Assembly (NCBI GenBank): GCA_022484695.1
Contig: JAKVKU010000006.1
Coordinates: 76,003-140,002 of the forward strand
Length of the DNA stretch: 64,000 nt
Origin: Lactobacillus sp.
GTDB lineage: Bacteria; Bacillota; Bacilli; Lactobacillales; Lactobacillaceae
Direction: 5' to 3'
In this document: piece after piece, positions 2,216 through 61,880 of the stretch
How positions within the stretch are numbered: the stretch's first letter is position 1
Layout of the letters: the number at the start of each line of letters is the position of its first letter
The notes under the pieces: generated by a model
What the model was told of the DNA's origin: nothing
Database searches by the model: none
Seen by the model: the letters and a program-made list of their open reading frames with translations, nothing else
Translations under genes and position numbers: made by a program

Positions 2216-3904
2216 ATGAGCGATACCAAGCAAATTTTTGACATTATTATTGTGGGGGCTGGCCCCGCAGGCCTGTCCGCTGGTATTTATGCCGGCCGGG
2301 CAACGTTGAACACGTTAGTCCTGGAAGCCGATCAAGTAGGCGGCCAAGTCACCACCACCTCCGTGGTCATGAACTATCCGGCGGCCCCTAAGATCAGTGG
2401 CACCAAGTTGATGCAGCAAATGGCCCAACAGGCTGATGATTTTGGCGTGACCATTACTAACGATACCATCACTGGCCTGGATTTAAATGGAGACGTGAAA
2501 GTACTCCATGGTAAGAAACAAGATTATCGCGCTTATAGTGTGATCTTAGCCACTGGTGCTAAGCCACGGGAGGTTGGTTTCCCTGGGGAAAGCGAATTTC
2601 GAGGCAAGGGCATAGCTTATTGTTCCACCTGTGACGGGGAATTATTCAGTGGTTTACAAGTGTTCGTTGTGGGGGGCGGCTACGCTGCTGCTGAAGAAGC
2701 GGACTATTTGACCCGTTATGCCCGCCATGTAACGGTGTTATGTCGCGCCGATGCGTTGACTTGTGCCCCATTAACGGCCGCCAAGGCTTTGAATAACCCT
2801 AAAGTTGATATCAAATACCACACCGAAGTGGTTGGTGTCAGCGGTAAAGATTACTTGGAGACCGCTACGTTCAAGGACACCCATACTGGGGAACAGACCC
2901 AGTATAAGGTCGCTGATGGGGATATGACCTTTGGCATGTTTATCTACGTGGGCACGAAACCCGCCACAGCCATGTTTAAGGATCAGATCAACTGTAATGC
3001 CCAGGGTTATGTCTTAGTGGATGCTGAACAAAAGACCAATGTCCCTGGGGTTTACGCAGCGGGGGATGTGGTTGCTAAAGATTTACGGCAAATTATCACC
3101 GCTGCCAGTGATGGGGCCACTGCGGCCACTACCGCTGAGCATTATGTGACGGCTTTGAAGCAAAAACTCAATATTCCGTTACATCCCGTTCAACCAAAAC
3201 CAAAAGCAGCGCCTAAAGATATGGGTCAAAGTACGCAAATCTCTGAAGCTAGTGCCCCCGAACCAGCCCATGCCGGGGCGTGGTTCTCCAGTGAAATCAA
3301 GCAACAATTACAACCGATTTTTGCCCGGTTAACTGATAATGTGACGCTACAGCTGTTAGATGATGGCTCCACCAAAACCCAGACCCTATTGGGCTTTGCC
3401 CAGGAATTTGTGACCATGGACAAGCATCTCAGTTTGAAAGTCACCAAGCAGTATCCGGAAAATGTCCGGGTGCCAGCTATTCAATTGTTAAACGCCCAGG
3501 ATCAACCCACTGGCTTACAGTTCAGTGGTATTCCCAGCGGCCATGAATTGAATTCGTTAGTGTTAGCTATCTATAATCTAGCTGGCCCTGGCCAAGCTGT
3601 GGATCCAGAACTGAAGCAACGGATTCAACAATTACCACAACTACAGATTGAAATTGGCGTGGCCTTGACCTGTCATTTCTGCCCAGACGTGGTGGCCGCT
3701 TGTCAGCACATGGCCGTGATTAATCCGAAAATCAGTGCCGAAATGATCGACCTCCAAGAATTTCCAGCTTATCGCAAGGACCATCATATCATGAGCGTCC
3801 CAGCTACCCGCATTAACGATGGGGAGACCATCTTTGGTAGCCAAACCTTGGAACAATTAGTGGCCGCTTGCGAAGCGCAAGCCCAAGTGAAAGCTGAAGT
3901 TTAA
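2216..3904 (+). CDS. Thioredoxin reductase with C-terminal AhpF-type thioredoxin domains (AhpF homolog)
   Basis: GAGPAG FAD motif, CSTCD redox centre, GVYAAGD, Pro/Ala linker, then double thioredoxin fold with CHFC. Directly downstream of ahpC. Confidence 0.9.
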   Translation: MSDTKQIFDIIIVGAGPAGLSAGIYAGRATLNTLVLEADQVGGQVTTTSVVMNYPAAPKISGTKLMQQMAQQADDFGVTITNDTITGLDLNGDVKVLHGKKQDYRAYSVILATGAKPREVGFPGESEFRGKGIAYCSTCDGELFSGLQVFVVGGGYAAAEEADYLTRYARHVTVLCRADALTCAPLTAAKALNNPKVDIKYHTEVVGVSGKDYLETATFKDTHTGEQTQYKVADGDMTFGMFIYVGTKPATAMFKDQINCNAQGYVLVDAEQKTNVPGVYAAGDVVAKDLRQIITAASDGATAATTAEHYVTALKQKLNIPLHPVQPKPKAAPKDMGQSTQISEASAPEPAHAGAWFSSEIKQQLQPIFARLTDNVTLQLLDDGSTKTQTLLGFAQEFVTMDKHLSLKVTKQYPENVRVPAIQLLNAQDQPTGLQFSGIPSGHELNSLVLAIYNLAGPGQAVDPELKQRIQQLPQLQIEIGVALTCHFCPDVVAACQHMAVINPKISAEMIDLQEFPAYRKDHHIMSVPATRINDGETIFGSQTLEQLVAACEAQAQVKAEV

Positions 3905-6764: not shown

Positions 6765-6778
6765 CAGGGCATTCCCTA
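6765..6778. promoter_or_regulatory. Palindromic box CAGGG-CATT-CCCTA (shared with lctP and lutA promoters)
   Basis: See finding; upstream of TTGACT (6795-6800)-16 nt-TATAAT (6817-22). Confidence 0.55.
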
Positions 6779-6794
6779 GGTTTAAGGGAACCTG

Positions 6795-6822
6795 TTGACT
6801 AAATCTGGAAGCGCTTTATAAT
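6795..6822 (+). promoter_or_regulatory. FNT promoter with overlapping cre-like site
   Basis: TTGACT-16-TATAAT, with TGGAAGCGCTTTAT (6806-6819) between and overlapping the elements. Confidence 0.6.
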
Positions 6823-6979: not shown

Positions 6980-7807
6980 ATGCATAGTATTACAACTAGT
7001 GAGACAATTGACGTATTGTCTGAAAAATCTGTGGGAAAGAGTCATTTAGGGCTTGGCAAGCTAATGTTCTTGGGAATCATGGCTGGGGCATATATTGCCA
7101 TTGGCTATTTGGCGTTTATCCGGGTATCAGGTAGTACCCCGAAGGAATGGGGCAGTTTTTCAACTTTCCTAGGCGCTTGTTTATTCCCAATTGGCTTGTT
7201 AGCCATCACATTTTTGGGTGGTGAGTTAGTCACCGGTAACATGATGGTGATGACTTTTGGCTTTATGAAGCGCAAAGTGTCATTATTCGCAGTTATTAAA
7301 AACTGGATCTTGGTATTATTCGCCAACTGTGTTGGTGGGGCTTTAGTCGGTTATTTCTTCGGTCACGTGACTGGCTTGACGGAAGGGGCTTTTGCGGCTA
7401 AGACCATCGCCGTGGCCACGGCCAAGTTATCTGATTCACCGTTAGCCATGGTGGTATCTGGTGTGGGCTGTAACATTTTAGTTTGTATGGCCATTTTCAT
7501 CGGCGCTATGAGTAAAGACTTCTTTGGGAAAATCTTTGGGATCTGGTTCCCAATCATGATCTTCGTTGTCTGCGGTTTTCAGCACGTGGTGGCCAACGCC
7601 TTTATCCTGGCAGCAGGAGTATTTGCTGGCGCTGGCTTCACAGCAGGTCAATTGATTCAAAACATTCTATTAGTCTTCTTAGGCAATGCCATTGGCGGAT
7701 CGTTATTCATGGCAGTACCCGTGTACTTTGCCAATCGTCAAGCCAAACCAGCACCTGCACCAGCGGCAGAAAAAGTTGAAGATGCTAGTCAACACGCGAC
7801 AGCTTAA
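6980..7807 (+). CDS. Formate/nitrite transporter (FNT) family channel
   Basis: GIMAGAYIA, GGELVTGN, NCVGG, GFQHVVAN, GNAIGG family motifs. Confidence 0.93.
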   Translation: MHSITTSETIDVLSEKSVGKSHLGLGKLMFLGIMAGAYIAIGYLAFIRVSGSTPKEWGSFSTFLGACLFPIGLLAITFLGGELVTGNMMVMTFGFMKRKVSLFAVIKNWILVLFANCVGGALVGYFFGHVTGLTEGAFAAKTIAVATAKLSDSPLAMVVSGVGCNILVCMAIFIGAMSKDFFGKIFGIWFPIMIFVVCGFQHVVANAFILAAGVFAGAGFTAGQLIQNILLVFLGNAIGGSLFMAVPVYFANRQAKPAPAPAAEKVEDASQHATA

Positions 7808-12666: not shown

Positions 12667-12747
12667 TAGGGAATACCCCAGACGTCTTCAAGTGCAAATC
12701 CTAAATTAAAATAGTACAATTAATTGGTAACGTGAAAACGCTTTACA
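12667..12747 (+). promoter_or_regulatory. lctP promoter region: TAGGG-AATA-CCCCA box, promoter and cre-like site
   Basis: Box 12667-80; GTGCAA (12692-97)-17-TACAAT (12715-20); TGAAAACGCTTTACA (12733-47). Confidence 0.6.
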
Positions 12748-12769: not shown

Positions 12770-14296
12770 ATGTGGCTTAATTTTATTTTTGCACTTATTC
12801 CCATCGTATGGCTCATTGTATCTTTAGGGGTCATCAAAATGGCTGCCGATCGGGCTTGTACCATCGGCTTGATCATTGCAATCTTTTTAGCAGTCGTTGC
12901 ATTCAAAATGCCAGTTGTAGATAGCTTGTCCGGTGCCCTGGAAGGTATTGTCATGGGGATCTGGCCAATTGTCTATGTCATTTTAGCAGCGTTGTTTACG
13001 TATAATTTAACAACGAAGTCTGGCAGCATGAAGGTTATTCAAGACATGCTCTCAGCCATCACCACGGACAAACGGATTTTGACGTTGATTATTGCCTGGG
13101 GTTTTGGGGGCTTTCTTGAAGCCATTGCTGGTTTTGGGACCGCCGTTGCCATTCCAGCCGGGATTTTAATTGCCTTTGGTGTTGATCCGATTCGGGCATC
13201 AGTGATTTGTTTGATTGCCAATACCACGCCAACTGCCTTTGGGGCCATTGGTTTGCCAGTTATCACCTTGGCCAACGTCACGCATTTAAATACCATGCAT
13301 CTATCATTTATCGTAACCATGCAATTATTGCCACTGATTATTTTAATTCCATTCGTACTAGTGGCCTTGGTAGATGGGGGTGTTAAAGCCATTAAAGGTG
13401 TGGGCTTAACGACTTTCCTTTCAGGTTTAGCGTTTGCTTTACCGCAAGTTTTCGTGGCTAAATATGTGGGCGCTGAATTGCCTGCTATTGTGGGGTCAAT
13501 CGTTTGTATTATCGTCACGGTCTTAATGGCCCGAGTGCAAGGGCAAAAGGATGAAGAGGCTTTAAAACACATTCCCCGGCATACCACCAGCGAATTGTTG
13601 AAAGCTTGGGCACCTTTTATCCTTGTTTTCGTGATCGTCTTGCTGGCTTCACCATTGGATAAACCAGTGAATACCATGCTAGGAAAGGCTGTCACTGCCA
13701 TTCAAATCTATACCGGACCAAAAGCGGTCCCTTATACGATCAACTGGCTATCTTCCCCAGGGACTTTGATCATTGTCGCCAGCGTATTGGGGGGCTTGAT
13801 TCAAGGTATGTCCTTGGGTAAGATTTTCGGGGTCCTAGGCAACACGGCCAAACAAATTTGGCGGACGTTAATTACCGTCTGTGCCATTGTGGCTTTGGCC
13901 AAGGTCATGGGCTATTCTGGCATGACCCAAAGCTTAGCCGTGACTTTAGTGGCAATCATGGGTCCAGTTTATCCATTGATTGCGCCAGTTATTGGGGCTT
14001 TAGGGACCTTTATCACTGGGTCGGACACCTCTTCAAACGTCTTGTTTGGGAACTTACAACTGCAAGCAGCCACAACTTTAAAAGCCGATACCTATTGGGT
14101 CGTTAGTGCCAACATGGTGGGGGCCACAGCCGGTAAGATGATTTCACCACAAAGTATCGCTGTCGCTTCCGCAGCCACGCACCAAGAGGGTCAAGAAGGA
14201 AATATCTTGAAGGAATCTCTCAAATGGTGTGGCGCTTATCTGGTAGTTATTTGTGCTTACATTTATGTGACCGGCTTGTTGCTTCATTTCTTATAA
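12770..14296 (+). CDS. lctP: L-lactate permease (LctP/LutP family)
   Basis: FGGFLEAIAGFG, ANTTPTAFGAIG, TGSDTSSNVLFG, GKMISPQSIAVA motifs; AGGAGG RBS; terminator 14309-14339. Confidence 0.95.
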   Translation: MWLNFIFALIPIVWLIVSLGVIKMAADRACTIGLIIAIFLAVVAFKMPVVDSLSGALEGIVMGIWPIVYVILAALFTYNLTTKSGSMKVIQDMLSAITTDKRILTLIIAWGFGGFLEAIAGFGTAVAIPAGILIAFGVDPIRASVICLIANTTPTAFGAIGLPVITLANVTHLNTMHLSFIVTMQLLPLIILIPFVLVALVDGGVKAIKGVGLTTFLSGLAFALPQVFVAKYVGAELPAIVGSIVCIIVTVLMARVQGQKDEEALKHIPRHTTSELLKAWAPFILVFVIVLLASPLDKPVNTMLGKAVTAIQIYTGPKAVPYTINWLSSPGTLIIVASVLGGLIQGMSLGKIFGVLGNTAKQIWRTLITVCAIVALAKVMGYSGMTQSLAVTLVAIMGPVYPLIAPVIGALGTFITGSDTSSNVLFGNLQLQAATTLKADTYWVVSANMVGATAGKMISPQSIAVASAATHQEGQEGNILKESLKWCGAYLVVICAYIYVTGLLLHFL

Positions 14297-18737: not shown

Positions 18738-19844
18738 ATGGAGGGCTTTGCCATGGATTTTTGTCCAAACTGTGGGGTTAGCATAGAAGCTGATCAAAAC
18801 TTTTGTAAGAATTGCGGTTATCCGTTAACCGCCAAAGCGCGGCAAATGGTGATGGGGGTAGCGCAGCAAATGCGCTTCATCGCCCCAGACGCGTCTAACA
18901 CCACAGTGTCTGCAACAACCCAAGATCCAAACACAATGCCAAAAAACCGAGCCAATCAGCGCCCGGCGCTTGCAACAACCCCAAGATCTACGCCAAATGA
19001 AGCGCCCACTAAACGGGCTTATGATCCTTATGAACCACCACAGCGGCCAACGACCGTGGCTAAAGCCAGCCCGGCCACAACCCCGAAAAGTACCTATGAT
19101 CCTTATGGCATTCCCACGGACCCAACGCCGGCCAAAGACCCAAGTCAAGCACCTGGGGCCAGTCCAGCGGTGTCAAGTACCAGGACCAGCAGCGCGGGTG
19201 TAACTGGGCGCCGCCAGGCAATGGTATCTAGACGCCAAGCTAAAGTAACGCCAAGTCAGGTGCAAGCTACAAAAGAAGAGCCAGTGGGCTATCAAACCCA
19301 GCCCCAGGGCTATGGCACCCCGCAATCAGCGGCCCTTTCCCGGGAATCAGGTTTTGAACATAGTCATGTGCGGGGCCAGCAACGGGGTAGAAATAGCGCA
19401 GCGACTGGGCGCTCACGCTTGCTAGATGGCCTAAATGGGATTTTTGCCATTATTTTAGGACTCACCAGCTTTTGGGGCGGGTTTATCAGCAATGGCCATT
19501 TTCTCGAACCCGGCGCCACCACCTTGTCGTTAGCTAAGACCATGGCCCTGGGCGGCAGCAACTTTCGCGGCACGATGATCTTGTTGTTGAGTTTATTGTT
19601 AATTGGACCGATTGTCTTATTGATTTTTAGTGTTTGGCAAACCCACTTCGCAGCTAGCTTTAAATTGGCGGCCAGTGTTTTTTCCGTCTTAGCTTATATT
19701 GTGGTTTTTGGGCTGTTGATTGCCCAGGGCATTGTGTCCGCCAGCGCCATTTCGAATTTTCAATTCGGCTGGGCTGCCATTGTGGCCATTGTGGCGTTAG
19801 TGGTGAATTTCATCGTCAGTGTACTAGATTTTATCAATCATTAG
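18738..19844 (+). CDS. Zinc-ribbon domain membrane protein
   Basis: CPNCG...CKNCG at N-terminus, about 200-aa P/T/A/Q-rich linker, about 4 C-terminal TM. Confidence 0.8.
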   Translation: MEGFAMDFCPNCGVSIEADQNFCKNCGYPLTAKARQMVMGVAQQMRFIAPDASNTTVSATTQDPNTMPKNRANQRPALATTPRSTPNEAPTKRAYDPYEPPQRPTTVAKASPATTPKSTYDPYGIPTDPTPAKDPSQAPGASPAVSSTRTSSAGVTGRRQAMVSRRQAKVTPSQVQATKEEPVGYQTQPQGYGTPQSAALSRESGFEHSHVRGQQRGRNSAATGRSRLLDGLNGIFAIILGLTSFWGGFISNGHFLEPGATTLSLAKTMALGGSNFRGTMILLLSLLLIGPIVLLIFSVWQTHFAASFKLAASVFSVLAYIVVFGLLIAQGIVSASAISNFQFGWAAIVAIVALVVNFIVSVLDFINH

Positions 19845-19870
19845 GGTAAATTAATTTGGAGGCAAAATGC

Positions 19871-21094
19871 ATGGAAGACAAAAGAAAACTGTTGATTCTT
19901 AAAGACTTGGTTGCTATCAAAACCGAGAATAACAACGAAATCATGGTGGCGCGCTATCTCAAGAAACTATGTGATTTGGCGGGCATCTTCAATGAAATTT
20001 TGCCGATCAATGATGACCGGGCGAATTTTGTAGCTGAAATTGGCGATGGTCAACCCGTGGTGGTGCTCTCAGGTCATATGGACACGGTGGTTGCGGACCC
20101 TAAAGACTGGCAGACCAATCCCTTTGAACTGACTACCAAGGGCGATCGGCTTTATGGTCGGGGTGCCACGGATATGAAAAGTGGACTGGCGGCGTTAGTG
20201 ATTGCCATGATCGAATTAAAAGAAGCCAAGTTGCCAATTAAGGGCACCATTCGCCTGTTGGCCACCGCCGGCGAAGAAGTGGGGCAACGGGGTGCTGAAA
20301 TCTTGGCCAAAGAAGGCTACATGAAAAATGTGGCCGCTTTGATCATTGGTGAACCCTCTGGCTATCGAATTGCCTATGCCAATAAGGGCGAATTAGATAT
20401 TACTTTGACGTCTAAGGGTAAAGCCGCCCACAGTTCCATGCCGAAGTTGGGAAATAATGCGGTAGCCCATTTATTAGCGATTTTAAATCGGCTGCAAGCC
20501 CAGATTCAACAAGCCACGGCTAACCTGACCAGCCCAGATTTAGGTGAGACTATCTTTAACGTTGATGTGATCCATGGCGGCGATCAAGTCAATGCCATCC
20601 CCGCCTTGGCCACGGCTAAAATCAACATTCGGACGATTCCCGAATTTGCCAATACTAAAATATTGCAGATTTTTAAGGACACCATTGCCGCCTATAATGA
20701 AAATACCAATGGTCACATCGAAATGAACCTGGAAATGCAAACCAGCCCCATTTTGGGCGACCCTGAAGCTGACCTGGTGAAAATTGCCCAAAAAGTGGGC
20801 CGGCCTTACTTACAGGCGACCAACTATTCGGCGGAAACCTTGAATGACATGCAGGCAGCGGCTAAAGCCACCGGGATTGCCTTTTCTCCGACGGAAATTG
20901 TGACCGTCGGTGTTTCTGGGGCCACCGATGCGGGGAAGTTGCTGGCAGATCAGCCCCAAGGTGCCACTTATTTGGTCTTTGGGCCAGGGAATGAAACGGC
21001 TCACCAAGATAATGAGTATGTTTCCCAGCAAATGTATTTGAATTTTATTGAGATCTATCAAAAAATGTTACTGACGTATTTTAATCATTCTTGA
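19871..21094 (+). CDS. ArgE/DapE-family M20 metallopeptidase/deacylase
   Basis: SGHMDTV, GRGATDMKSG, GEEVG, IGEPS, AHQDNE. GGAGG RBS favours ATG 19871. Confidence 0.92.
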   Translation: MEDKRKLLILKDLVAIKTENNNEIMVARYLKKLCDLAGIFNEILPINDDRANFVAEIGDGQPVVVLSGHMDTVVADPKDWQTNPFELTTKGDRLYGRGATDMKSGLAALVIAMIELKEAKLPIKGTIRLLATAGEEVGQRGAEILAKEGYMKNVAALIIGEPSGYRIAYANKGELDITLTSKGKAAHSSMPKLGNNAVAHLLAILNRLQAQIQQATANLTSPDLGETIFNVDVIHGGDQVNAIPALATAKINIRTIPEFANTKILQIFKDTIAAYNENTNGHIEMNLEMQTSPILGDPEADLVKIAQKVGRPYLQATNYSAETLNDMQAAAKATGIAFSPTEIVTVGVSGATDAGKLLADQPQGATYLVFGPGNETAHQDNEYVSQQMYLNFIEIYQKMLLTYFNHS

Positions 21095-33689: not shown

Positions 33690-33717
33690 GTAGAAGTCAA
33701 ATTTATACAAATATCCA

Positions 33718-33792
33718 ATATTCCCTACGCTAATATTACTTAGATCAGGTTCAATGGGTATAATCTCAGCCGTATGTGGCACCCCAGAAAGT
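33718..33792 (-). ncRNA. TPP riboswitch (controls ECF operon)
   Basis: Minus strand GGGGTGCC...GGCTGAGATTATACCCATTGAACCTGATCTAAGTAATATTAGCGTAGGGAA (CUGAGA, ACCUGA, GCGUAGG cores). Confidence 0.95.
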
Positions 33793-33944
33793 TTATTTAA
33801 TTGTGTGGTCTTGTAACAAGAGCATCTTACCATGGCTTAGTAACTTCTGTAAAGTGGATTGGTTCAAATTATTTTATCAGCAAGTTTTAAAAAAAGGATT
33901 TGCAATTTTAAAAATATGTGATACATTTAGGTCATTCAAATATG

Positions 33945-34020
33945 AATCACTAGGGGTGCCTTGAGCTGAGATTATACCCGTAGAACCTGATTTGGTTAAG
34001 ACCAACGTAGGAAAGTGATT
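33945..34020 (+). ncRNA. TPP riboswitch (controls tenA)
   Basis: AATCACT/AGTGATT P1; GGGGTGCC..GCTGAGATTATACCCGTAGAACCTGAT..GTTAAGACCAACGTAGGAA. Confidence 0.96.
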
Positions 34021-34093
34021 GTACCATAAACTTTTTTTCGGACGTCTTCCTTTGATTCGATTTGAAACTACAAATCAAAAGGGAGCTTTTTTT

Positions 34094-36049: not shown

Positions 36050-37036
36050 TTAGTTCACAGAGGTTTCATTTAATAACGGTGCTTCGCTGACAGCTTCGGA
36101 CACCACAGCATCATTGAATAAAAAGTTATTGATGATAAATAGGACTTTCGGGTTGTCATGCATAACGGAGTGTTCGCCATCCATACCATGGACTTCGATC
36201 TCATGATAGACGGCAGCCGTGCCCCGCAATAGGTAATTGACCGATTTGGCGGAGTTGACGGTGATGTATTTGTCGCTGTTAAAACCCGTATCGGTATTGC
36301 CATAAATATTTAATACTTTGGCATTTTTAGGAAAATCTTTTTTATGGAAAAACCAATATAAATAATGGGGATTCATCAATAAGGGCCGACCGGAAACCGT
36401 CAGGGGATTTAAATTAGGGATATCCCCTAGGGCAATGACCCCATTAAAGGGACCAGCCACTAAAATGACTTTATTCAAAGTAGGGAACTTGGGGTCGTCA
36501 TGATTTTCCAACAGACAGTTCAAAAGGGCAGTGGCCCCCACGGAATGACCCACGGCATTAAATTTCACAAAGCCAAAGCGTTTTTTCAAGGTTGGCAACA
36601 CTAATTCCAGCCAGCGGGAGTGCATGCGCATGCTGGCGATATTTTCTTCAAAAATAATTTGGACGATGGGATTGTCGTTATTAGTCCAAGTCCCTTGATA
36701 AGTAATGCGGCCCCGCCAATCCACGATGACCCGTAAAAAGTCCGCCTGGTGGGTAAATTCGATGGCCGATTCCACCATTTTTTCCGTGGTGGTCAAACCA
36801 CCCCGAAAACCGTGGACAAAAATAGTGGGGATTTGTTGGGCGTGATTGGGCAAAGTATGGGGGGTGACTTTAGATAGGTCTAAGCCCTGAACAAGTTTTT
36901 TAGGCAGCAGACTGTACGTCAAAGCAGCCGCAATGTAAAAGAGGGCCTTGAGCTTCCCCTTAAAACCATGCATGGCGGTTGTTTGAATGATTGAATCCGG
37001 TTTTGCTTTCAAAAATCTGCACCTCTTCTTCGTCAA
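36050..37036 (-). CDS. Alpha/beta hydrolase (DUF915-like)
   Basis: FVHGFRGG oxyanion, VGHSVG nucleophile elbow, SDKYI, EHSVMH. Start codon uncertain. Confidence 0.88.
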   Translation of the reverse strand: MTKKRCRFLKAKPDSIIQTTAMHGFKGKLKALFYIAAALTYSLLPKKLVQGLDLSKVTPHTLPNHAQQIPTIFVHGFRGGLTTTEKMVESAIEFTHQADFLRVIVDWRGRITYQGTWTNNDNPIVQIIFEENIASMRMHSRWLELVLPTLKKRFGFVKFNAVGHSVGATALLNCLLENHDDPKFPTLNKVILVAGPFNGVIALGDIPNLNPLTVSGRPLLMNPHYLYWFFHKKDFPKNAKVLNIYGNTDTGFNSDKYITVNSAKSVNYLLRGTAAVYHEIEVHGMDGEHSVMHDNPKVLFIINNFLFNDAVVSEAVSEAPLLNETSVN

Positions 37037-39749: not shown

Positions 39750-39762
39750 GGAAAACTATTAG

Positions 39763-48415: not shown

Positions 48416-48510
48416 TAGGGGAATCCCTACATTTTGAGCAGCATAAACTGAGATTAGCGGTCAAGCCTTGGTATGATTGGGTTTTAATCGTTTTCATGAA
48501 AACCCTTATC
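48416..48510 (+). promoter_or_regulatory. lutA upstream region: TAGGG-GAAT-CCCTA box, extended -10 and cre-like sites
   Basis: Box 48416-29; TGGTATGAT (48469-77); TGAAAACCCTTATC (48497-510) and its mirror TTAATCGTTTTCA. Confidence 0.6.
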
Positions 48511-48614
48511 GGTTTTTAAAAGGCTGTGGTCTGCGCTACAATTGAAGTTATAAATATTGCACTCATTCTTAGAATGTTTTTATAAATTGTCGTAGGTGAC
48601 TAGGAGGTATTCGG

Positions 48615-49379
48615 ATGAAAGTTGTTATTTTTTCAACCTGTGTGGTTGATTTAGAATTCCCAAATGTTGGGATTGCAATGACCGAAGTTTTAGAACGCTT
48701 TGGCTGTGATTGCTATTTGCCAAAGGATCAAATTTGCTGTGGCCAACCCACTTTTAATAGTGGTTATGCCAAAGGGACTCAGCGGGCATTCCGTAATCAA
48801 ATCGACGCGTTGTTAAGCGTGGATGCGGATTATATCGTGGGGCCGGCCGGTTCTTGTGTGGCCATGATTCGGGAATTTCCTGAATTTATGAAAGATGATC
48901 CCCAATATGCGGACAAAGCTAGAGAAGTTGCGGCTAAAACTTTCGAATTCTCCCAATTTTTATGGCGGGTCTTAGGGGTTGAAAATGCCGGGGCCGAGCT
49001 TGATGGCCGGGCAACTTACCACCGGTCTTGTCATATGACCCGGCTGTTAGGTGAATCTGAATCACCTTATGCCTTATTAGCTCATGTGAAGGGCTTGGAA
49101 ATGATTCCTCTAGAAAATGCCCATGATTGCTGTGGTTTCGGGGGGACTTTCTCAGCAAAGGAACCTGAAATCTCCAGACAAATGGTAGATGCTAAAGTGG
49201 GCCATATTGTGGATACTGGCGCGGAAATTTTGATCAGTTGCGATCCTGGGTGTTTGATGAATATTGGGGGCCGGTTTAACCGCTTAGGCAAACCCATTAA
49301 AATCATGCACATCGCCGAAGTCCTCAACAGCAACGTGGATGAAAGCCGGATCAGTTACTTAAAACAAATGCCAGTCTAG
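48615..49379 (+). CDS. lutA: L-lactate utilization protein A (CCG domains)
   Basis: FSTCVVD, CCGQP, AGSC, YHRSCH, CCGFGGTFS, SCDPGC. Confidence 0.94.
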   Translation: MKVVIFSTCVVDLEFPNVGIAMTEVLERFGCDCYLPKDQICCGQPTFNSGYAKGTQRAFRNQIDALLSVDADYIVGPAGSCVAMIREFPEFMKDDPQYADKAREVAAKTFEFSQFLWRVLGVENAGAELDGRATYHRSCHMTRLLGESESPYALLAHVKGLEMIPLENAHDCCGFGGTFSAKEPEISRQMVDAKVGHIVDTGAEILISCDPGCLMNIGGRFNRLGKPIKIMHIAEVLNSNVDESRISYLKQMPV

Positions 49380-49402
49380 CAACAAAGGAGGAAAACTGAA
49401 TT

Positions 49403-50896
49403 ATGGGAATTCAAACGAGTGATAAACCCTTATTAGAACGGGTCAAAGAATCTGAACAAGATAAATTCATGCAAGCCTCTGTTGCGAAGGCCCAAGATGC
49501 CCAACACATTAAACGTGAAGACTCACGGGCACTTTTAGGCAATTGGGAACAATGGCGGGAATTGGGTGAACAGATCCGCCAACGGGCTTTAAAATATTTA
49601 CCAGATTATCTGGAACAGTTTAGTGATAATGTGGAAAAAAATGGTGGAGATGTCTTCTTTGCGGCCACCGAAAAAGATGCTGTGGACTATATTGAAAAAA
49701 TCGTTAAAGAAACTGGTGCCAAACGCATCGTGAAGTCTAAGTCCATGGTGACCACGGAAATTGACTTAGATAAACGGCTGTTGGCCATGAATAAAGGCTT
49801 GCAGTTAATGGAAACCGATTTGGCCGAGTTTATCTTACAAGAAGATGACTGGGATGAACCTACGCATATCGTGTTCCCCACGTTGCATAAAAACCGGGAT
49901 CAAGTCCGGGAAATCTTTATGAAGTTAGGCTATGAAGGGGACAATGACCCCATGCACTTAGCCAGATTTGCCCGGAAATTCCTGCGGGAATACTTCTTAC
50001 AAGCTGACTTAGGCATCACCGGCTGTAACTTTGCCGTGGCTGATAATGGCATGATTAACTTGGTCACCAATGAAGGGAACGCTGATTTGACCATGGCTAT
50101 TCCGAAGACGCAAATCGTGGTCATGGGCATGGAGCGGATCGTGCCAACCATGAATGATGCCGAAATCCTAGACAATATGCTGTGCCGCAGTGCCGTTGGG
50201 CAAAAACTAACCAGTTATGTGACCTTTGAAAAAGGGCAAGTCGCCGGTGAAACCGATGGCCCAGAACATTTTCATGTGGTGATCGTGGATAATAATCGCT
50301 CCCGGGCGTTGGGTTCTGAGTTTCAGTCTATTTTACAATGTATCCGGTGTGGGGCTTGTATGAACGTATGCCCAGTCTATCGGCACATTGGTGGCCACGG
50401 CTATGGGTCGATTTACCCAGGCCCATTGGGGGCTGTATTGTCGCCAATTCTAGGGGGCTACCAAGCCTTTCAAGAATTGCCTTATGCCTCTAGCTTGTGT
50501 GGGGCTTGTACAGAAGTTTGTCCAGTTAAGATTCCATTGCACAAATTATTGATTGAACATCGGCGCATCATCACCGATCAGCGCCATATGCAACATGGCC
50601 TGAACAACTTGATGATGGAGGCTATTGGGATTGGGACTGGCTTCCCATGGCTGTTTAGAACGGCAGTGCGTTTTGGCCACTTAGGCTTGAAACCATTGGC
50701 CAGCAAAGGCGAAGTCCACGCTGAGAACTTTATTAAACCCGAAGGCTCTGTTAAGGGCGGCCCTGGTTTAGTCGGTGGTTGGGCAGATGTCCGGGACTTG
50801 CCATTGCCACCTAAGAACAAGGACAGCTTTAGACAGTGGTTTGCCAAACATAAGGCAAACCAACCTCAACCCGGCGACCAAAAGGCCAATCAATAA
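49403..50896 (+). CDS. lutB: L-lactate utilization protein B (Fe-S)
   Basis: VKSKSMVTTEI, TNEGN, CIRCGACMNVCPVY, SLCGACTEVCPV. Confidence 0.96.
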   Translation: MGIQTSDKPLLERVKESEQDKFMQASVAKAQDAQHIKREDSRALLGNWEQWRELGEQIRQRALKYLPDYLEQFSDNVEKNGGDVFFAATEKDAVDYIEKIVKETGAKRIVKSKSMVTTEIDLDKRLLAMNKGLQLMETDLAEFILQEDDWDEPTHIVFPTLHKNRDQVREIFMKLGYEGDNDPMHLARFARKFLREYFLQADLGITGCNFAVADNGMINLVTNEGNADLTMAIPKTQIVVMGMERIVPTMNDAEILDNMLCRSAVGQKLTSYVTFEKGQVAGETDGPEHFHVVIVDNNRSRALGSEFQSILQCIRCGACMNVCPVYRHIGGHGYGSIYPGPLGAVLSPILGGYQAFQELPYASSLCGACTEVCPVKIPLHKLLIEHRRIITDQRHMQHGLNNLMMEAIGIGTGFPWLFRTAVRFGHLGLKPLASKGEVHAENFIKPEGSVKGGPGLVGGWADVRDLPLPPKNKDSFRQWFAKHKANQPQPGDQKANQ

Positions 50897-50910
50897 GGAG
50901 GACCGCAGCC

Positions 50911-51624
50911 ATGACGATTTATAATCGAGAAGCGTTTTTAGACCGCTTATCAGAACGTTTAGGCACACCTAGACATCAAATGGATAAAGAACCATTTATT
51001 CACCGTAATCAGTTGCCTGAAGAAACCTTGGCAGATTTATCCAGCGATGAATTATTAGACTTAGCCAAGAATACTAGTGAAGCGTTACATGTTACTTTTC
51101 AAGTGACTGACCAAACCGGCTTACCGGCCATCCTAGATGAATATTTGAAACGGATCGGGGCCGGACAGTTGATTTTACCCACGGAACCAGACCAAGTGGC
51201 TGACTATCAGTTACAAGACTGGATCGACACGGTGGCCAAAGAACGAACGGTCAAATATTGGGATCCCAAAGCTGACCGAGCAACGAATCTAGCTACTTCC
51301 CAAGATTCCATGGTGGCCATTGGCTTTGGGGATTATCTGCTGGCTGAATCGGGGACGATTACGGTGCCAACGACCCCAGGGCAGGGGCGGGCTTTTAATT
51401 TCTTGCCAACCCATTACTTGAGTATTGTGAAACGCAGCCATATTTTACCTAGATCCACCCAAGTGACTAAGATCTATGATGACAAGATCAAATCCGGGGA
51501 GTTAGTCACTTCTAATATTAACTATATTTCTGGACCATCTAACTCCGGGGATATCGAAATGGTTTTGATCGTCGGTGTCCATGGTCCTTTAGATATGACT
51601 TATGTGGTGGTTAACGACCGTTAG
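50911..51624 (+). CDS. lutC: L-lactate utilization protein C (LUD domain)
   Basis: LAESGT, LPTHY, ISGPSNSGDIEM.LIVGVHGP. Confidence 0.94.
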   Translation: MTIYNREAFLDRLSERLGTPRHQMDKEPFIHRNQLPEETLADLSSDELLDLAKNTSEALHVTFQVTDQTGLPAILDEYLKRIGAGQLILPTEPDQVADYQLQDWIDTVAKERTVKYWDPKADRATNLATSQDSMVAIGFGDYLLAESGTITVPTTPGQGRAFNFLPTHYLSIVKRSHILPRSTQVTKIYDDKIKSGELVTSNINYISGPSNSGDIEMVLIVGVHGPLDMTYVVVNDR

Positions 51625-51756
51625 CAAATATACAAATGAGACTTGTGGCGCATTTTCAGCTGCAGGTCTTTTTTGATGGTCAGGGACAGGTTATTTTGTG
51701 ATATTCGGCTTTTTCGGTATAATTAGTTTATTGTATAGATGCAGGAGGCAGTTTTT

Positions 51757-52734
51757 TTGAAGAAATCTGGGGTACTTTTGATTAATTTGGGCACACCAAA
51801 AAGCGCGGCACCAAAAGATGTCCGCCAATTTTTAAGCCATTTTTTAAGTGATCCACGGGTGATCGATATGCCCCGAGCTTTTTGGTGGTTGATATTACAT
51901 GGGATGATTTTACCTTTTCGCCCCAAACACTCGGCTAAAATGTATGGGCAAATTTGGGACCCTGAACTGGGGGGCTCGCCCTTGTTGTATTACACCCAGC
52001 AAGTGACCCAAAAGCTCCAGGCCAGCTTATCCGGCTACGACGTGCGCTTTGCCATGAGCTATTCTCAGCCGACGATTGCCCAGGTCTTGCAAGACTTTAA
52101 TGACCAGGGGATTGAAGATTTGACCATTGTACCCATGTATCCGCAGTTTTCCACCACCACGGTGGGGTCGGTGTATGATGCGGTGGCTAATTTTTATTTA
52201 AAAAAAGCCCGCATCCCCCATCTGCATATCATTACAGATTTTTACCAGGATGCGCGCTATATTCAAGTTTTAGCCAATACGATTCAACAAGCGTTAGATG
52301 CCCATCCTAACGCCGATGAGTTATTATTTTCTTATCATGGGATTCCCCAACGTTATGTGGCCGAGAAAAAAGATCCCTATTTTGAACAATGTCATATCAC
52401 CACGGAAATGACCATGGAGCGCTTAGATCATGCGATTCCCTATGAAATGACCTTCCAGTCCAAATTTGGACCGGGCCAGTGGTTAACGCCAGCCACCCAC
52501 GAAACGGTGGTCAAGCTGGCCCAAAATGGGGCCAAAGAGCTGTTAGTGGTGACCCCAAGCTTCACGGCGGATTGCCTAGAGACTTTGTATGAAATCAATA
52601 CGGAAAACCGCCGTTATTTCTTAGAAGCCGGGGGCAGTGAATTTCATTTTATTTCACCCTTAAATGATAACACTGAATTTGTTGATTTTTTGACCCAGTT
52701 GATCACTGAAAACTCAGCGACCCAAAGGCAATAA
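51757..52734 (+). CDS. hemH: Ferrochelatase
   Basis: GVLLINLGTP, FLSDPRV, FSYHGIP, FQSKFG..WL.P, FTADCLETLYEI. TTG 51757 after AGGAGG (ATG 51739 is the alternative). Confidence 0.95.
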   Translation: MKKSGVLLINLGTPKSAAPKDVRQFLSHFLSDPRVIDMPRAFWWLILHGMILPFRPKHSAKMYGQIWDPELGGSPLLYYTQQVTQKLQASLSGYDVRFAMSYSQPTIAQVLQDFNDQGIEDLTIVPMYPQFSTTTVGSVYDAVANFYLKKARIPHLHIITDFYQDARYIQVLANTIQQALDAHPNADELLFSYHGIPQRYVAEKKDPYFEQCHITTEMTMERLDHAIPYEMTFQSKFGPGQWLTPATHETVVKLAQNGAKELLVVTPSFTADCLETLYEINTENRRYFLEAGGSEFHFISPLNDNTEFVDFLTQLITENSATQRQ

Positions 52735-53628
52735 CAAGCCCAGGCCAAAGGTAACCACTAAGGCCAAGGTAGAGACGAATAGATTTTTCACGGCAAAAAT
52801 AAAGGTTTCTTTCTTGACTTGTTTGGCCAATAGTTTTTGGGTATTTTTAACAATAATTGGGATGGTCAACAGGGTCAACAAGCTTAAAAGTGGGAGGACG
52901 TTTAAAATGACGGCCACCACTAGGCTGGCATACCCCAGGATCTCCAAGGTCACATAAAACTTCAAGCTATTGGGTACGCCGATGTAGTAGACAATGGTTT
53001 TGCGGCCCAATTGAATGTCTTCTTGGGCGTCACAGAAGTTATTGGCCAATAGTAAGCTGGCAATCATGGTCATGGCTAAGCCCGAGGCTAAAAGAACGGG
53101 CCAGACAAAGGCCCAGTTAAAGGTGATTTGATCATACACGTTAATATATACGGCAATCAAGGTAATCATAAAGCCCATGGTGAAACCGGAGAAAAATTCC
53201 CCAAAAGGTGTGCCGGAGATGGGCCGGGGACCAGCGGCATAAAACCAGCCTACTAGAAAACACCAGGCGCCCATGACCAACAGGGGCCAACCAACGTTGG
53301 CCACAATGATCAGGCCAATTAAACCGGCACTGACCATCATTAAAATGGTCATCCAAGCAATTTTTTTAGGATTTAAGTGATTGACGCCAATGATATTGGT
53401 TTTACGGCGAAAATCTTGGGCGTGGGTGGCCCGGGTATAGTCTTGATAATTATCATGGGCATCGACAGCCATATTAAAGACAAACATGGCAATGAAAAAT
53501 AAGATCAAGAAAACGGGATGGATGCTGCGATAATGGTACCAAGCAAAAAAGGTACCCAGCAGAAATGGGAAAATACTCGCAGTTTTAGCTTTTATTTCGA
53601 CTAATTCTAAAAAGACGCTTAAAGTCAC
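52714..53628 (-). CDS. menA: 1,4-dihydroxy-2-naphthoate polyprenyltransferase (UbiA family)
   Basis: LELVEIKAK, DNYQDY, YAAGPRPIS.TPFGE, LANNFCD..ED...GRKT. Confidence 0.9.
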   Translation of the reverse strand: MTLSVFLELVEIKAKTASIFPFLLGTFFAWYHYRSIHPVFLILFFIAMFVFNMAVDAHDNYQDYTRATHAQDFRRKTNIIGVNHLNPKKIAWMTILMMVSAGLIGLIIVANVGWPLLVMGAWCFLVGWFYAAGPRPISGTPFGEFFSGFTMGFMITLIAVYINVYDQITFNWAFVWPVLLASGLAMTMIASLLLANNFCDAQEDIQLGRKTIVYYIGVPNSLKFYVTLEILGYASLVVAVILNVLPLLSLLTLLTIPIIVKNTQKLLAKQVKKETFIFAVKNLFVSTLALVVTFGLGLLLPLGR

Positions 53629-53717
53629 GAAAAAACATTTCCTTTCTTTGACGATATTGGTTAATATAAAACTAACATACTTGCGCTAAAAAAACAGTTG
53701 TAAAGAGGTAGAACACG

Positions 53718-54689
53718 GTGATTTCAATTAATCCAATGTGGACAGCTTTTCCAGGCTTGCACGATCAACTGATGCAAGTGGAGCAAGTTATCCAAGCTAA
53801 TATAAAGCTACGCAATAAAGCGATTCAAAATACGTTAGAGGCCTTGACCATCAATGGGGGGAAATTGGTGCGGCCGGCGTTTTTATTATTGTTTGCCACC
53901 TTTGGCCCCCAACAAGATCCCACGAAGTTTAGTAGGAGTGCTGCGGCCATGGAGATCTTACACCTGGCCACCTTGATCCATGATGATGTCATCGATGATT
54001 CCCCACTGCGGCGGGGGGTCACCACCATGCATACCCATTATGGCAAGCGCAATGCCATTTATGCCGGGGATTATTTATTCACGGTTTATTTTGAATTGAT
54101 CAACGAAACCGCCCGCAATGCCCAGGATACCCATTTGAATGCCATCAGCATGCGACAGATCCTGTTAGGGGAACTGGACCAGATGCGTTTTGATTTTAAC
54201 ACGGGGATGACGGTCAAGGACTACCTCCGGGAGATCGACGGCAAAACCGCCGCGTTATTTCAATTGAGCTGTGAAATGGGGACGCGGCTAAGTGGGGCTA
54301 GTTTGACCATCCAGCGCCGGGCCCGGCGGATCGGCCATGATATTGGGATGGCTTTTCAAGTTTTAGATGACATTTTAGATTATACCCAATCTGAAGCGAC
54401 ATTGGCCAAGCCCAATGGGGAGGATTTACGTTCGGAAACCTATTCGATTCCGCTATTATTCGCCGTTCAAAATTATCCTGAACTTAAAACCCTGCTCCGG
54501 CAAGAAATGACCCCGGCCCATGTGGCTTATTTGGTTCATTTAGTCCAAACTTATGGTGTACCGGATGCCAAGGACTTAGCCAGTCGTTACACCCAAAAAG
54601 CGCTGAGGGAAATTGCCCAGCTACCCAATGGGGATGCGGCTGAAATTTTGAAACAAATTACCCAGGCTTTATTGCTCCGGACCAACTAA
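53718..54689 (+). CDS. Polyprenyl diphosphate synthase (HepT-like)
   Basis: GGKLVRP, LIHDDVIDDS..RRG, GKTA, FQVLDDILD. Confidence 0.93.
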   Translation: MISINPMWTAFPGLHDQLMQVEQVIQANIKLRNKAIQNTLEALTINGGKLVRPAFLLLFATFGPQQDPTKFSRSAAAMEILHLATLIHDDVIDDSPLRRGVTTMHTHYGKRNAIYAGDYLFTVYFELINETARNAQDTHLNAISMRQILLGELDQMRFDFNTGMTVKDYLREIDGKTAALFQLSCEMGTRLSGASLTIQRRARRIGHDIGMAFQVLDDILDYTQSEATLAKPNGEDLRSETYSIPLLFAVQNYPELKTLLRQEMTPAHVAYLVHLVQTYGVPDAKDLASRYTQKALREIAQLPNGDAAEILKQITQALLLRTN

Positions 54690-54843
54690 TAGGGCCAGCA
54701 CAGCCATAATAATACTTGAAGTTAAGACAAGCTCGCTGGTTTTTCAGGGGCTTGTTTTTTGTTGGGGATTTCAAGTCGAATTAATTGCTTCTAAAGCCCA
54801 TTCTCGGTAGGATTACAGTGAATTGAGAAAGGGATGTTTTGTG

Positions 54844-55482
54844 ATGGCAAAATTTGATTATCGTACCATAGAAGCCCAAGAGTATTCCCACGTTGATAAG
54901 CCCTCAGTGGTCATTTTAAATGAACGTAATTATATCACCCTCAAGTCAAAGGGGCGCTTTGATTTACAAGATGCCCAATTCATGCAACAAGTCGCCAGTA
55001 TGTACGCCTTAGCTGACGGTATTCGGCAACAGGCGGCCACCAGTAACAAATTGCCTTGGTATAAAGATTATGTGCCCTACCCCTTAAACAGTTATTGGTA
55101 TGACGACGGTAGTTACTTATTGCTGATCAAGCAGCCTAATTTTACCATTCCTGAACTCCTGGATAATGCCAAGGCTGACCTGGCTGGAAAATTTCCAGCA
55201 GCATTATTAGCGGATATCCACTTTGAACGGCATGCCGAAGGGGTTGAGGCCCAATTGATCAATCACGGGCCCGTGCATGTTGATAATGCCACCTTTCAGG
55301 CCTTGGCTAAATTTATGGCGGACAATCAATTCCAGCGCCATTTCAGCGGGCACCGGGAAGTTTATTTGACCTCTTTAACCCCTGATCTAGACCCGGCCAA
55401 ACTTGAAGTATTGGTCCGCATCCCCATTGAACGTAATGAGAGCAGTTTAGATTCCGGCCGGTTTCCCGTGGCTGAAAATTAA
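54844..55482 (+). CDS. GyrI-like small-molecule-binding domain protein
   Basis: DYVPYPL..YW, LLIKQP, EGVEAQL..HGP, HREVYL. Confidence 0.8.
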   Translation: MAKFDYRTIEAQEYSHVDKPSVVILNERNYITLKSKGRFDLQDAQFMQQVASMYALADGIRQQAATSNKLPWYKDYVPYPLNSYWYDDGSYLLLIKQPNFTIPELLDNAKADLAGKFPAALLADIHFERHAEGVEAQLINHGPVHVDNATFQALAKFMADNQFQRHFSGHREVYLTSLTPDLDPAKLEVLVRIPIERNESSLDSGRFPVAEN

Positions 55483-55498
55483 GATGAAGTTCCCATTT

Positions 55499-55546
55499 AA
55501 AAAGCCGCCAATCATGCCCCGTACTGGGAGATGATGGTGGCTTTTT
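55499..55546. terminator. Bidirectional terminator between GyrI-like gene and cydC
   Basis: AAAAAGCCGCCA...TGGTGGCTTTTT. Confidence 0.75.
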
Positions 55547-55554
55547 GCGTGGTG

Positions 55555-59054: not shown

Positions 59055-59173
59055 AAAATCACCAATTTTCAAGAAAGATAGTTGCTAAAAGGTTAAGAAC
59101 ATAAGCAGAGAGGCCGGGGCAAAAGTAAGTTTTGCCGTCGACCTCTCTAAAAGTTATTGGATTAATAAAGCGT

Positions 59174-60175
59174 TTATGCGCTGGCTTTGACCCGCCGTTT
59201 GAAGATGAAGAAGCTCCAAATGAAGTAAGCCAACATGATCGGTAGTAAGATACAAGCCACAATGGTCATGATCTTCAAAGTATAAGGGGATGCCGAAGCG
59301 TCTTTGATCAACAGGCTGTGGGCTGGATTGTCAGCAATCAAGACCCGTGGGAACAAGCCGTTGAACAATAAGATCACGATGGAACCTAAGGTCAAACCGC
59401 TGGTGATGAAGCCCCAGCCTTCGTGGTCGGCGTATGCACAGTACATGGAGATAGCTGACAAGGCCACGATCAAGACCAAAAGCAATAGGGTAGAAATTGG
59501 ACGTTCTTTGAAGAAGTCTGTGAAGATGAACAAAAGAATTGCAAAGACAACTTCACCGGCAAACAAGACCCAATATAACTTTTCAACGAGGTTTCTAGCC
59601 CGATCTCTTAAGTTGCCGTCAATTTTCAAACGAATGAAGTTCAGGCCGTGGATCAAGCAAAGTAAGGTAACGGCAACGCCACCCACAATGGATAACAAGT
59701 TCACGTTATCCCAGAGGCCAGCGAAGATGTCGCCATTTTTGTCCATTGGTAAACCCTGGATCAAGCTGGTAAACATCATCCCTAATAAGAATGGGGCAAC
59801 GGTACTGCCAATGCACAAAGCCCAATACCAGAAACGGCGGCCCCCAGCAGTTTCAGCGTTGGCGGAGAATTCAAAGGAAACGCCCCGGAAAATCAACGCA
59901 CACAAGGTTAAGAACAAGAGAATGTAGTAACCGGAAAATAGGCTGGCGTACCATAGTGGGAATGAGGCGAACATGGCCCCGCCGGCGGTGATCAACCAGA
60001 CTTCATTGCCATCCCAGTGGGGACCAATGGTGGCGATCAAGGATTCCCGGTCGTCGTCATTTTTAGCTAAAACCCGGGTGGCCATGCCAACACCAAAGTC
60101 AAAGCCCTCTAAGAAGAAGAATCCGATAAATAAAACTGCGATTAAAATGAACCATAATAGTTGTAAGGCACTCAT
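59174..60175 (-). CDS. cydB: Cytochrome bd ubiquinol/menaquinol oxidase subunit II
   Basis: FFLEGFDFG, GPHWDGNEVWL, FRGVSFE, SPYTL. Confidence 0.96.
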   Translation of the reverse strand: MSALQLLWFILIAVLFIGFFFLEGFDFGVGMATRVLAKNDDDRESLIATIGPHWDGNEVWLITAGGAMFASFPLWYASLFSGYYILLFLTLCALIFRGVSFEFSANAETAGGRRFWYWALCIGSTVAPFLLGMMFTSLIQGLPMDKNGDIFAGLWDNVNLLSIVGGVAVTLLCLIHGLNFIRLKIDGNLRDRARNLVEKLYWVLFAGEVVFAILLFIFTDFFKERPISTLLLLVLIVALSAISMYCAYADHEGWGFITSGLTLGSIVILLFNGLFPRVLIADNPAHSLLIKDASASPYTLKIMTIVACILLPIMLAYFIWSFFIFKRRVKASA

Positions 60176-61614: not shown

Positions 61615-61880
61615 ACTAACAACCTCCCTAAAAAACATACAAAAAATCAAATAAAAACTAAGTAGAAAAATTATAATTTATAACTATTATTATTGTAGTT
61701 TGAAAAGCGACAGATAGCAACTAGAAACTGTTTTATATCGGGAATTCTTTGTTAATTTAGCCTAATTCTTATTGAAGAAATTAACCAAATTATTGCCAGT
61801 GTAGCCGATTACATTTGCTTTCAGGGATTTTCAACCAAATATTGGGGAATATGCTAAAATTGAAACTAGAGGTGAGTAAT

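Follow-up and report, generated by a model that had tools for sequence, protein, structure and literature searches.

The 64,000-nucleotide (nt) stretch of Lactobacillus sp. DNA analysed here (hereafter the window) carries three palindromes of the form TAGGG-N4-CCCTA, one upstream of a gene for an FNT-family channel, one upstream of the L-lactate permease gene lctP and one upstream of the lactate oxidation operon lutABC, and it raises the question of which regulator reads this shared element and which signal that regulator conveys. The first-pass annotation of the window had assigned the palindromes to a transcription factor that it could not name and that would switch on lactate re-uptake and oxidation once sugar is gone, and had read the FNT protein as a lactate channel. 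We find that the three palindromes are, as judged by their sequence, operators of the NreC type, a motif that is already published. We consider it likely that phosphorylated NreC binds these boxes and activates lctP, lutABC and the FNT gene, and that CcpA, acting at catabolite-responsive elements (cre), adds repression by sugar. The palindromes were recovered at exactly the positions first reported for them, all three in intergenic DNA (bit scores are those of the weight matrix described below):

6765-6778: NreC-type box 1, CAGGGCATTCCCTA (reverse complement TAGGGAATGCCCTG), upstream of the FNT gene; 15.1 bits, rank 2
12667-12680: NreC-type box 2, TAGGGAATACCCCA, upstream of lctP; 14.2 bits, rank 3
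48416-48429: NreC-type box 3, TAGGGGAATCCCTA, with perfect arms, upstream of lutA; 18.4 bits, rank 1

The identities of the genes that follow the boxes were confirmed with NCBIfam and Pfam, which were used to annotate nearly all open reading frames (ORFs) of the window:

6980-7807, plus strand: FNT-family channel, 275 amino acids (NCBIfam TIGR00790, 1.8e-54)
12770-14296, plus strand: L-lactate permease LctP, 508 amino acids (NCBIfam TIGR00795, 429 bits, above the curated cut-off)
48615-51624, plus strand: lutABC operon, with lutA at 48615-49379, lutB at 49403-50896 and lutC at 50911-51624

LutB matches TIGR00273 with 522 bits, above the cut-off, LutA matches CCG-type and LdhH C-terminal/GlcF-type models, and LutC has the LUD domain.

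The three boxes are the sole matches to TAGGG-N4-CCCTA with at most one mismatch in the window. Their count alone is unremarkable, given that whole-window shuffles yielded a mean of 1.62 matches and at least three in 20 of 100 trials. All three fall within the 7,450 intergenic bases of the window, where a first-order Markov null for such DNA predicts 0.12 matches on average and three or more with a probability of 3e-4 (3,000 simulations). The boxes are a shared, conserved and non-random cis-element that joins the FNT gene, lctP and lutABC, as had been proposed, and no unrelated intergenic site of the window carries a further match within one mismatch.

The element corresponds to the operator of NreC, the response regulator (NarL/FixJ family) of the staphylococcal oxygen/nitrate system NreABC, for which the supplement to PMC9918477 gives the consensus TAGGG...CCCTA. 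The Staphylococcus carnosus operators listed there are TAGGGAATACCCCTA (OP1) and TAGGAGAATCCCTA (OP2) for nar, TAGGGAATCCCCTC (OP1) and AAGGGGATTCCCTA (OP2) for nir, and TAGGGAAAAGCCGA (OP1) and AAGGGAAAGCCCTT (OP2) for narT, and the Bacillus licheniformis NreC operator, verified by electrophoretic mobility shift assay, is TAGGGGAGTTCCCTA (PMC9918477 supplement). According to reviews, the kinase NreB phosphorylates NreC, which in this form recognises a GC-rich palindrome and thereby stimulates the transcription of nar, nir and narT. The window boxes match these operators down to the AAT spacer, and nar OP1 is almost identical to the lctP box. A weight matrix constructed from five published 14-mers alone, and thus independent of the window sequences, places the three boxes at ranks 1 to 3 over the 64 kb, followed at rank 4 (13.0 bits) by a site in a coding region. 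Since the box equals the NreC operator consensus and the species encodes nreABC by narGH, the regulator need no longer be treated as nameless, and NreC is the candidate.

The distribution of the boxes among relatives was examined next to that of their promoters. The LutA proteins of the window and of Agrilactobacillus composti DSM 18527 are 100% identical while the DNA differs slightly, because of which we take the window, on this sequence comparison, to be from a near-identical strain of A. composti. Among 80 lutA loci that were fetched and examined over 500 nt upstream, the box is present in all three Agrilactobacillus species and in four Loigolactobacillus species, where it reads TAGGGCAATCCCTA, and absent from the other 73 loci. 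The lutA upstream regions of the three Agrilactobacillus species align with a mean column identity of 67%, and the longest invariant block of this alignment is AGGGGAATCCCTACATTTTG, in which the box lies, followed by TGCGCTACAAT, the -10 of a proximal promoter. The lctP box is the perfect palindrome TAGGGAATTCCCTA in A. fermenti and TAGGGATTTCCCCA in the third Agrilactobacillus species, and the conserved islands of the lctP promoter in the three species are the box, a -35-like GTGCAA and the -10 region TAGTACAAT, both of them invariant, and a cre-like site, TGTAAGCGCT, with diverged flanks between them. Footprinting thus bears out the lutA and lctP boxes and fails for that of the FNT gene, which is identical in A. 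composti DSM 18527, is absent from the orthologous FNT promoters of an A. yilanensis-like strain and of Loigolactobacillus jiayinensis, and has no counterpart in A. fermenti, where no FNT gene is found at the syntenic place. The FNT box is confined to the A. composti lineage.

The changes that the boxes have accepted in their arms, which for lctP are T, A or G at position 1 and T or C at position 13, are not compensated on the other side, the hairpins that the boxes could form are weak (-2 to -3.2 kcal/mol, with stems of 3-5 bp) and an Rfam scan of the window, in which two thiamine pyrophosphate riboswitches were the only hits, found no family at the boxes. Because of these three features, the box is best regarded, from its sequence, as a double-stranded protein-binding site and not as an RNA structure. 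A terminator scan marked all three boxes on the minus strand; we rejected a terminator reading because stems of this kind are too weak for it and no minus-strand gene has its end there.

None of the three boxes is adjoined by a transcription factor gene among the annotated ORFs of the window, in line with the first-pass annotation, which had seen no obvious cognate regulator nearby, and no regulator gene adjoins the box in any of the species examined. The window encodes DNA-binding proteins of the MarR, YheO-type PAS-HTH, GntR-TrkA_C and DUF1836 types, none of which is linked to the box in other species. A divergent gene of 244 codons beside the FNT gene was considered as the regulator and rejected, since it encodes a secreted protein of unknown family. 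A Crp/Fnr regulator of the PrfA group such as LarR was also considered, found no sequence support and was dropped in favour of NreC. Orthologues of NreC were searched for with the nar-linked response regulator of Limosilactobacillus fermentum, whose gene lies in the context of narGHJ, molybdenum cofactor (Moco) genes, a GAF protein, a kinase and narK. A staphylococcal NreC-like probe served only to retrieve this real L. fermentum regulator, and no conclusion rests on the probe. Orthologues were found in A. composti DSM 18527 (P0312, with 62% identity to the L. fermentum query), A. yilanensis and A. fermenti, as well as in Loigolactobacillus backii, L. iwatensis and L. bifermentans, and several of the homologous clusters carry the name NreC in their source records. 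The cluster of A. composti and A. fermenti (loci L093 and L095) consists of narH-narG and, divergently, moeB-moaB-moeA-mobB/moaC, a small ORF and nreA-nreB-nreC, and the same nar/nre cluster is found in L. fermentum and L. iwatensis. The NreA-like protein matches NCBIfam NF038250 (2e-30, below the curated cut-off) and the structure of S. carnosus NreA (PDB 4IUH, 6.8e-19).

The intergenic region between narG and moeB of A. composti contains TAGGGAATGACCTA, with one mismatch to the box, and TAGCCTTTTCCCTA, with two, 49 nt apart; A. fermenti and L. iwatensis both retain this pair, and the equivalent position of L. fermentum reads TAGGGAAAGTCCTA. An architecture of half-degenerate NreC boxes, TTCCCTAAT ... 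ATACTTCGATTAGGGAA, about 49 nt apart, is thereby common to the narG-moeB regions of three genera of Lactobacillaceae. The corresponding positions are:

narG-moeB box regions: L093 4337-4399; L095 3463-3525; L098 ~3210-3275; L091 13860

As a side observation, the L. fermentum DR9 record CP033372.1 (L091), deposited as 'plasmid unnamed1', is 760 kb long and has chromosome-like content, including narGHJ, Moco biosynthesis, nreABC, suf and narK; its NreB frame is interrupted by a stop and missing from the listed annotation.

The position of the boxes relative to the predicted promoters and cre-like sites is summarized in the following list, in which cre matches were scored against the B. subtilis consensus TGWAANCGNTNWCA:

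6795-6822, plus strand: FNT promoter TTGACT-16-TATAAT, 11 of 12 consensus matches; box centre at about -57.5 from the predicted start
6806-6819, plus strand: cre-like site TGGAAGCGCTTTAT in the FNT promoter spacer and -10; three mismatches to the consensus
12693-12719, plus strand: lctP promoter with -35-like TGCAAA, 15-nt spacer and -10 TACAAT; box centre at about -52.5
12733-12746, plus strand: cre-like site TGAAAACGCTTTAC downstream of the lctP -10; two mismatches to the consensus
48448-48477, plus strand: distal lutA promoter with weak -35 CTGAGA and TG-extended -10 TATGAT; box centre at about -61.5
48483-48496, minus strand: cre TGAAAACGATTAAA at the predicted start of the distal lutA promoter; one mismatch to the consensus
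48515-48542, plus strand: proximal lutA promoter TTTAAA-16-TACAAT, with TGCGCTACAAT invariant across the three Agrilactobacillus species

The distance from the end of the box to the start of the -10 hexamer is 38 nt for the FNT gene, 33 nt for lctP and 42 nt for lutA, roughly the 34-42 nt given earlier, and the box centres lie some 52-62 nt from the predicted start sites of the three promoters. All three boxes are upstream of the -35 region and not over the core promoter, in agreement with the earlier suggestion that their position is that of an activator. The lctP promoter was not called by a strict consensus promoter scan, and the distal lutA promoter keeps a -10-like hexamer, of varying sequence, at the same alignment position in the three Agrilactobacillus species. 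The cre-like sites noted in the first pass are only partly borne out: that at 6806, for all its three mismatches, is kept as TGCAAGCGCTTTAT in the homologous promoter of L. jiayinensis and that at 12733 as TGTAAGCGCT in the other two Agrilactobacillus species, whereas the site at 48497 is poor (three mismatches) and is better replaced by the cre at 48483-48496. Like CcpA-controlled genes, all three loci have cre-like sites in or just downstream of their core promoters, and those of the FNT gene and lctP are conserved across species; none of the sites fits the B. subtilis consensus perfectly, the mismatches numbering one to three.

From these features we propose the following mechanism. The cytoplasmic kinase NreB, when active, would phosphorylate NreC, a dimer of which would bind TAGGG-N4-CCCTA centred about 52-62 nt upstream of the transcription start and help RNA polymerase to initiate at the promoters of lctP, lutABC and the FNT gene, which are otherwise weak. 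Activation by phosphorylated NreC is suggested because the boxes are upstream of the -35 region, the -35 hexamers are weak and the published role of NreC is that of an activator. CcpA, bound to the overlapping cre sites, would shut the same promoters while sugar is present, so that the promoters would behave as an AND gate that requires the NreB signal to be on and sugar to be absent. Lactate would then be imported by LctP and oxidised to pyruvate by the quinone-linked LutABC, and the electrons would pass via menaquinone to nitrate reductase, making lactate the donor for an anaerobic, nitrate-linked respiration; the FNT channel would take formate in or let nitrite out. That NreC probably binds here, the sign of its regulation, the signal sensed and the electron route are all matters that we infer from the DNA.

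In staphylococci, NreB is active when oxygen is lacking, and nitrate modulates the kinase by way of NreA. The presence of an NreC box therefore implies that the trigger is the NreABC signal, in staphylococci anoxia together with nitrate, and not lactate or the exhaustion of sugar alone, as had been supposed for the three loci; sugar exhaustion would act only through the cre/CcpA layer.

Several findings weigh against this reading. NCBIfam has no NreC-specific model, and the name NreC was given by orthology, gene context and the source names of homologous clusters. The nreABC genes are outside the window, on another contig, and were seen in the type strain and not in the metagenomic strain itself. 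The sequencing runs that contain the window sequence are DNA metagenomes only (a bioreactor-sludge run contains it in full), with no RNA run among them. The predicted box centres, at -52.5, -57.5 and -61.5, are out of helical phase with each other, the start sites being predicted only. The boxes of the nar promoter are weaker than those of the lactate genes, contrary to what one would expect of the canonical target. The lutA box of Loigolactobacillus follows the stop codon of a TnpB-like gene by 9-15 nt and is separated from lutA by a terminator, an awkward position for an activator site. Finally, the NreB-like kinases have only C66-x-x-C69, a pair that is invariant in A. composti, A. fermenti, L. 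fermentum and L. iwatensis:

NreB-like kinases, with CxxC in the N-terminal sensor domain: L093 8947-9999; L095 8952-9998; L091 ~18920-19990; L098 8746-9774

NreB of S. carnosus has four cysteines and the sulfide sensor of B. licheniformis three, arranged as CX2CX11C. Because NreB keeps only the CxxC and not four cysteines, its signal in these lactobacilli may not be oxygen, which lowers the claim of oxygen sensing and not that of NreC sites.

A CxxC-type NreB cannot hold the classical four-cysteine cluster in one subunit and may therefore read a different signal, such as a thiol/disulfide state, the redox state of quinone or a cluster bridged between the subunits of the dimer. We tentatively raise, as a possibility to which we give less than even weight, that NreABC has been rewired in Agrilactobacillus (and perhaps in Loigolactobacillus for lutABC), such that its strongest operators drive lactate import and LutABC in order to feed an anaerobic, menaquinone-dependent nitrate respiration, with a previously undescribed CxxC variant of NreB as the sensor.

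The system described here shares with the staphylococcal NreABC of S. carnosus and S. aureus the GC-armed TAGGG-N4(5)-CCCTA palindrome with its A/T-rich (AAT) spacer, the arrangement of nreA (GAF), nreB (HisKA_3 kinase) and nreC (GerE-type regulator) beside narG, and, on the proposed reading, an activating regulator that is encoded away from most of its targets. It differs in those targets, which in staphylococci are nitrate and nitrite reductase and nitrate transport and here would be lactate permease, lutABC and the FNT gene, in a nar promoter with half-degenerate boxes only, in an NreB with two cysteines instead of four, and in the number of operators, as staphylococcal promoters have two each (OP1 and OP2) whereas each lactate-gene promoter has one strong box. 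A precedent for a change of targets is provided by NreBC of B. licheniformis, which controls sqr-pdo in a response to sulfide (PMC9918477, PMC13478379). Its NreC, only 40% identical to the staphylococcal protein, recognises this palindrome too, as TAGGGGAGTTCCCTA in front of a target unrelated to nitrate, which shows a stable operator under a changing regulon and signal. NreA is absent from that system and its NreB, with CX2CX11C and a [2Fe-2S] cluster, senses sulfide, whereas the cluster described here includes nreA, is linked to nar and encodes an NreB with the CxxC only.

It is unlikely, but deserves the most weight among the alternatives, that another factor binds the boxes, either a NarL/FixJ paralogue or an unrelated lactate-responsive regulator, and that the regulon answers to lactate or carbon status. 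Lactate genes are not among the known targets of NreC in staphylococci, we found no link of NreC to lactate genes of lactobacilli in the literature, and the main text of a published regulon reconstruction of lactic acid bacteria does not mention NreC; the degenerate boxes at the nar promoters of the same genomes would also sit well with a different protein. The lactate-responsive GntR-FadR repressors LutR and LldR, which control lutABC-lutP and lldPRD, have the same kind of targets, lactate permease and lactate oxidation genes. No GntR/FadR gene of this type, however, flanks lutABC (neighbours DegV, DUF1836 and hemH) or lctP (neighbours a DUF3862 protein and an Ntn hydrolase). A GntR domain occurs in the window solely in the GntR-TrkA_C protein beside an opu transporter, and the box lies upstream of the -35 region and not over the promoter. 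The box is also not known to resemble the GntR-type sites, TNGT-N-ACNA. The absence of any regulator gene beside the boxes, the agreement with NreC operators down to the AAT spacer, the top three matrix scores in the window and the retention of the motif by an NreC as distant as that of B. licheniformis all favour NreC over another factor.

Rather improbable, too, is that NreC binds the boxes and represses or only modulates the genes, for example by turning lactate oxidation off when NreB is active. Such a role would fit the usual view of LutABC-type oxidation as aerobic and the location of lutABC beside cydABCD, hemH and menA, as well as the second lutA promoter, which is distant from the box and has an invariant -10, and the lack of a common helical phase among the boxes at -52 to -62 from starts that are predicted only. 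It is at odds with the published action of NreC, which is activation, with the location of the three boxes upstream of the -35 and off the core promoter, and with the poor -35 hexamers of the lctP and distal lutA promoters, which are typical of promoters that depend on an activator.

We regard it as very improbable that the palindrome is a relic of a mobile element, namely the right end or guide-RNA hairpin of an IS200/IS605-type TnpB element, in which case it would have no regulatory role or would only record an insertion history. The idea comes from five Loigolactobacillus loci (one of them a metagenome contig) in which a TnpB-like gene of 506 codons is directly upstream of lutA at the same syntenic place, with the box 9-15 nt after it and before an intrinsic terminator:

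TnpB-like gene loci (Loigolactobacillus): L059 6107-7650; L045 5970-7790; L054 2989-4660; L068 1023-2620; L090 41-880

The encoded protein has a Cas12f-like TNB domain, seemingly intact RuvC D/E/D motifs and a low-complexity linker, and its copies are 70-88% identical; the gene may belong to an old, immobile element with a guide region that extends over the box. We found no other copies of the gene beyond this one syntenic locus, and the box therefore does not travel with a multi-copy element. The window has a TnpB gene of its own, at 46-1026, which is only 27% identical to the TnpB-like protein and lacks the box, and no TnpB gene or remnant flanks any Agrilactobacillus box, where the boxes are instead conserved jointly with promoter elements and have weak hairpins and non-compensatory arm changes. 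Lastly, that the boxes are chance matches or functionless, weak terminator-like hairpins of the minus strand is barely credible and effectively refuted by their conservation across species amid diverging flanks and by their intergenic enrichment (three of three, P = 3e-4), even though whole-window shuffles reach three matches in 20 of 100 trials and the terminator scan flags all three boxes, as the stems have only 3-5 bp and no minus-strand gene ends upstream of any of them.

The operator type and the regulator family of the NreC reading are known, and what is new is lctP, lutABC and the FNT gene as targets, and the host family. If the reading is correct, the nameless regulator of the first pass gives way to NreC, and the re-uptake and oxidation of lactate are coupled to the nitrate-respiration switch and gated by catabolite repression, which would explain the source of electrons for nitrate reductase in respiring lactobacilli and would be relevant to nitrate and nitrite chemistry in fermented foods, silage, compost and sludge. 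The NreC operator would then have remained constant in Bacillota even as its targets shifted from nitrate to sulfide and on to lactate genes, and the two-cysteine NreB would reopen the question of what this sensor family detects outside staphylococci.

The reading of the FNT protein as a lactate channel could not be sustained. Among family models it matches the generic fnt first, then FocA and then NirC, and its PDB relatives are HSC, FocA and NirC channels. The nearest orthologues, with 67-73% identity, are encoded within mobA-FNT-nuoE-nuoF-fdhA formate dehydrogenase operons. The core of the FNT promoter (-35, cre and -10), GTTGACTAAATCTGGAAGCGCTTTATAAT at 6793-6822 of the window, differs little from the promoter that precedes the mobA-FNT-formate dehydrogenase operon in L. 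jiayinensis (L083 ~455-485), because of which the sequence suggests that the lone FNT gene of A. composti is derived from such an operon. Together with the confinement of its box to one lineage, this makes a lactate channel unlikely, and formate uptake or nitrite export fits an NreC regulon better; the protein is not to be called a lactate channel on the present evidence. In DSM 18527 the FNT gene is split into overlapping ORFs of 87 and 212 codons in two independent assemblies (L096 2808-3639 and L097 151-982), in contrast to the intact gene of the window, and may be a pseudogene in the type strain.

Two further sites in the window resemble the box and are not claimed. A perfect 15-nt variant, TAGGGATATCCCCTA, is present at 36415-36429 within the coding sequence for a DUF915 hydrolase (36050-37036, minus strand), where it probably occurs by chance, and a site at 39760 upstream of ackA has two mismatches to the box and is more cre-like.

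Respiratory and redox genes are abundant in the window, and include ahpCF, a flavoprotein of the NADH oxidase/peroxidase type, ackA, hemH, menA, a polyprenyl diphosphate synthase gene and cydABCD. The neighbourhood of lutABC (48615-61650) is itself respiratory, with hemH, menA, a heptaprenyl-type diphosphate synthase gene, cydDC and cydBA. We found no NreC-type box at the cyd, hemH and menA promoters of the window; a cre-like site, TGTAGCCGATTACA, is present at 61800, upstream of cydA. The ORF at 46-1026 encodes an IS605-type TnpB (OrfB) that is perhaps cut by the window start, and it is followed by a GC-rich region of about 250 nt (1027-1300) that could be its guide (omega) RNA and is unrelated to the boxes. 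Two divergent thiamine pyrophosphate (TPP) riboswitches, at 33704-33796 on the minus strand and 33942-34030 on the plus strand, lie between energy-coupling factor (ECF) transporter genes and tenA.

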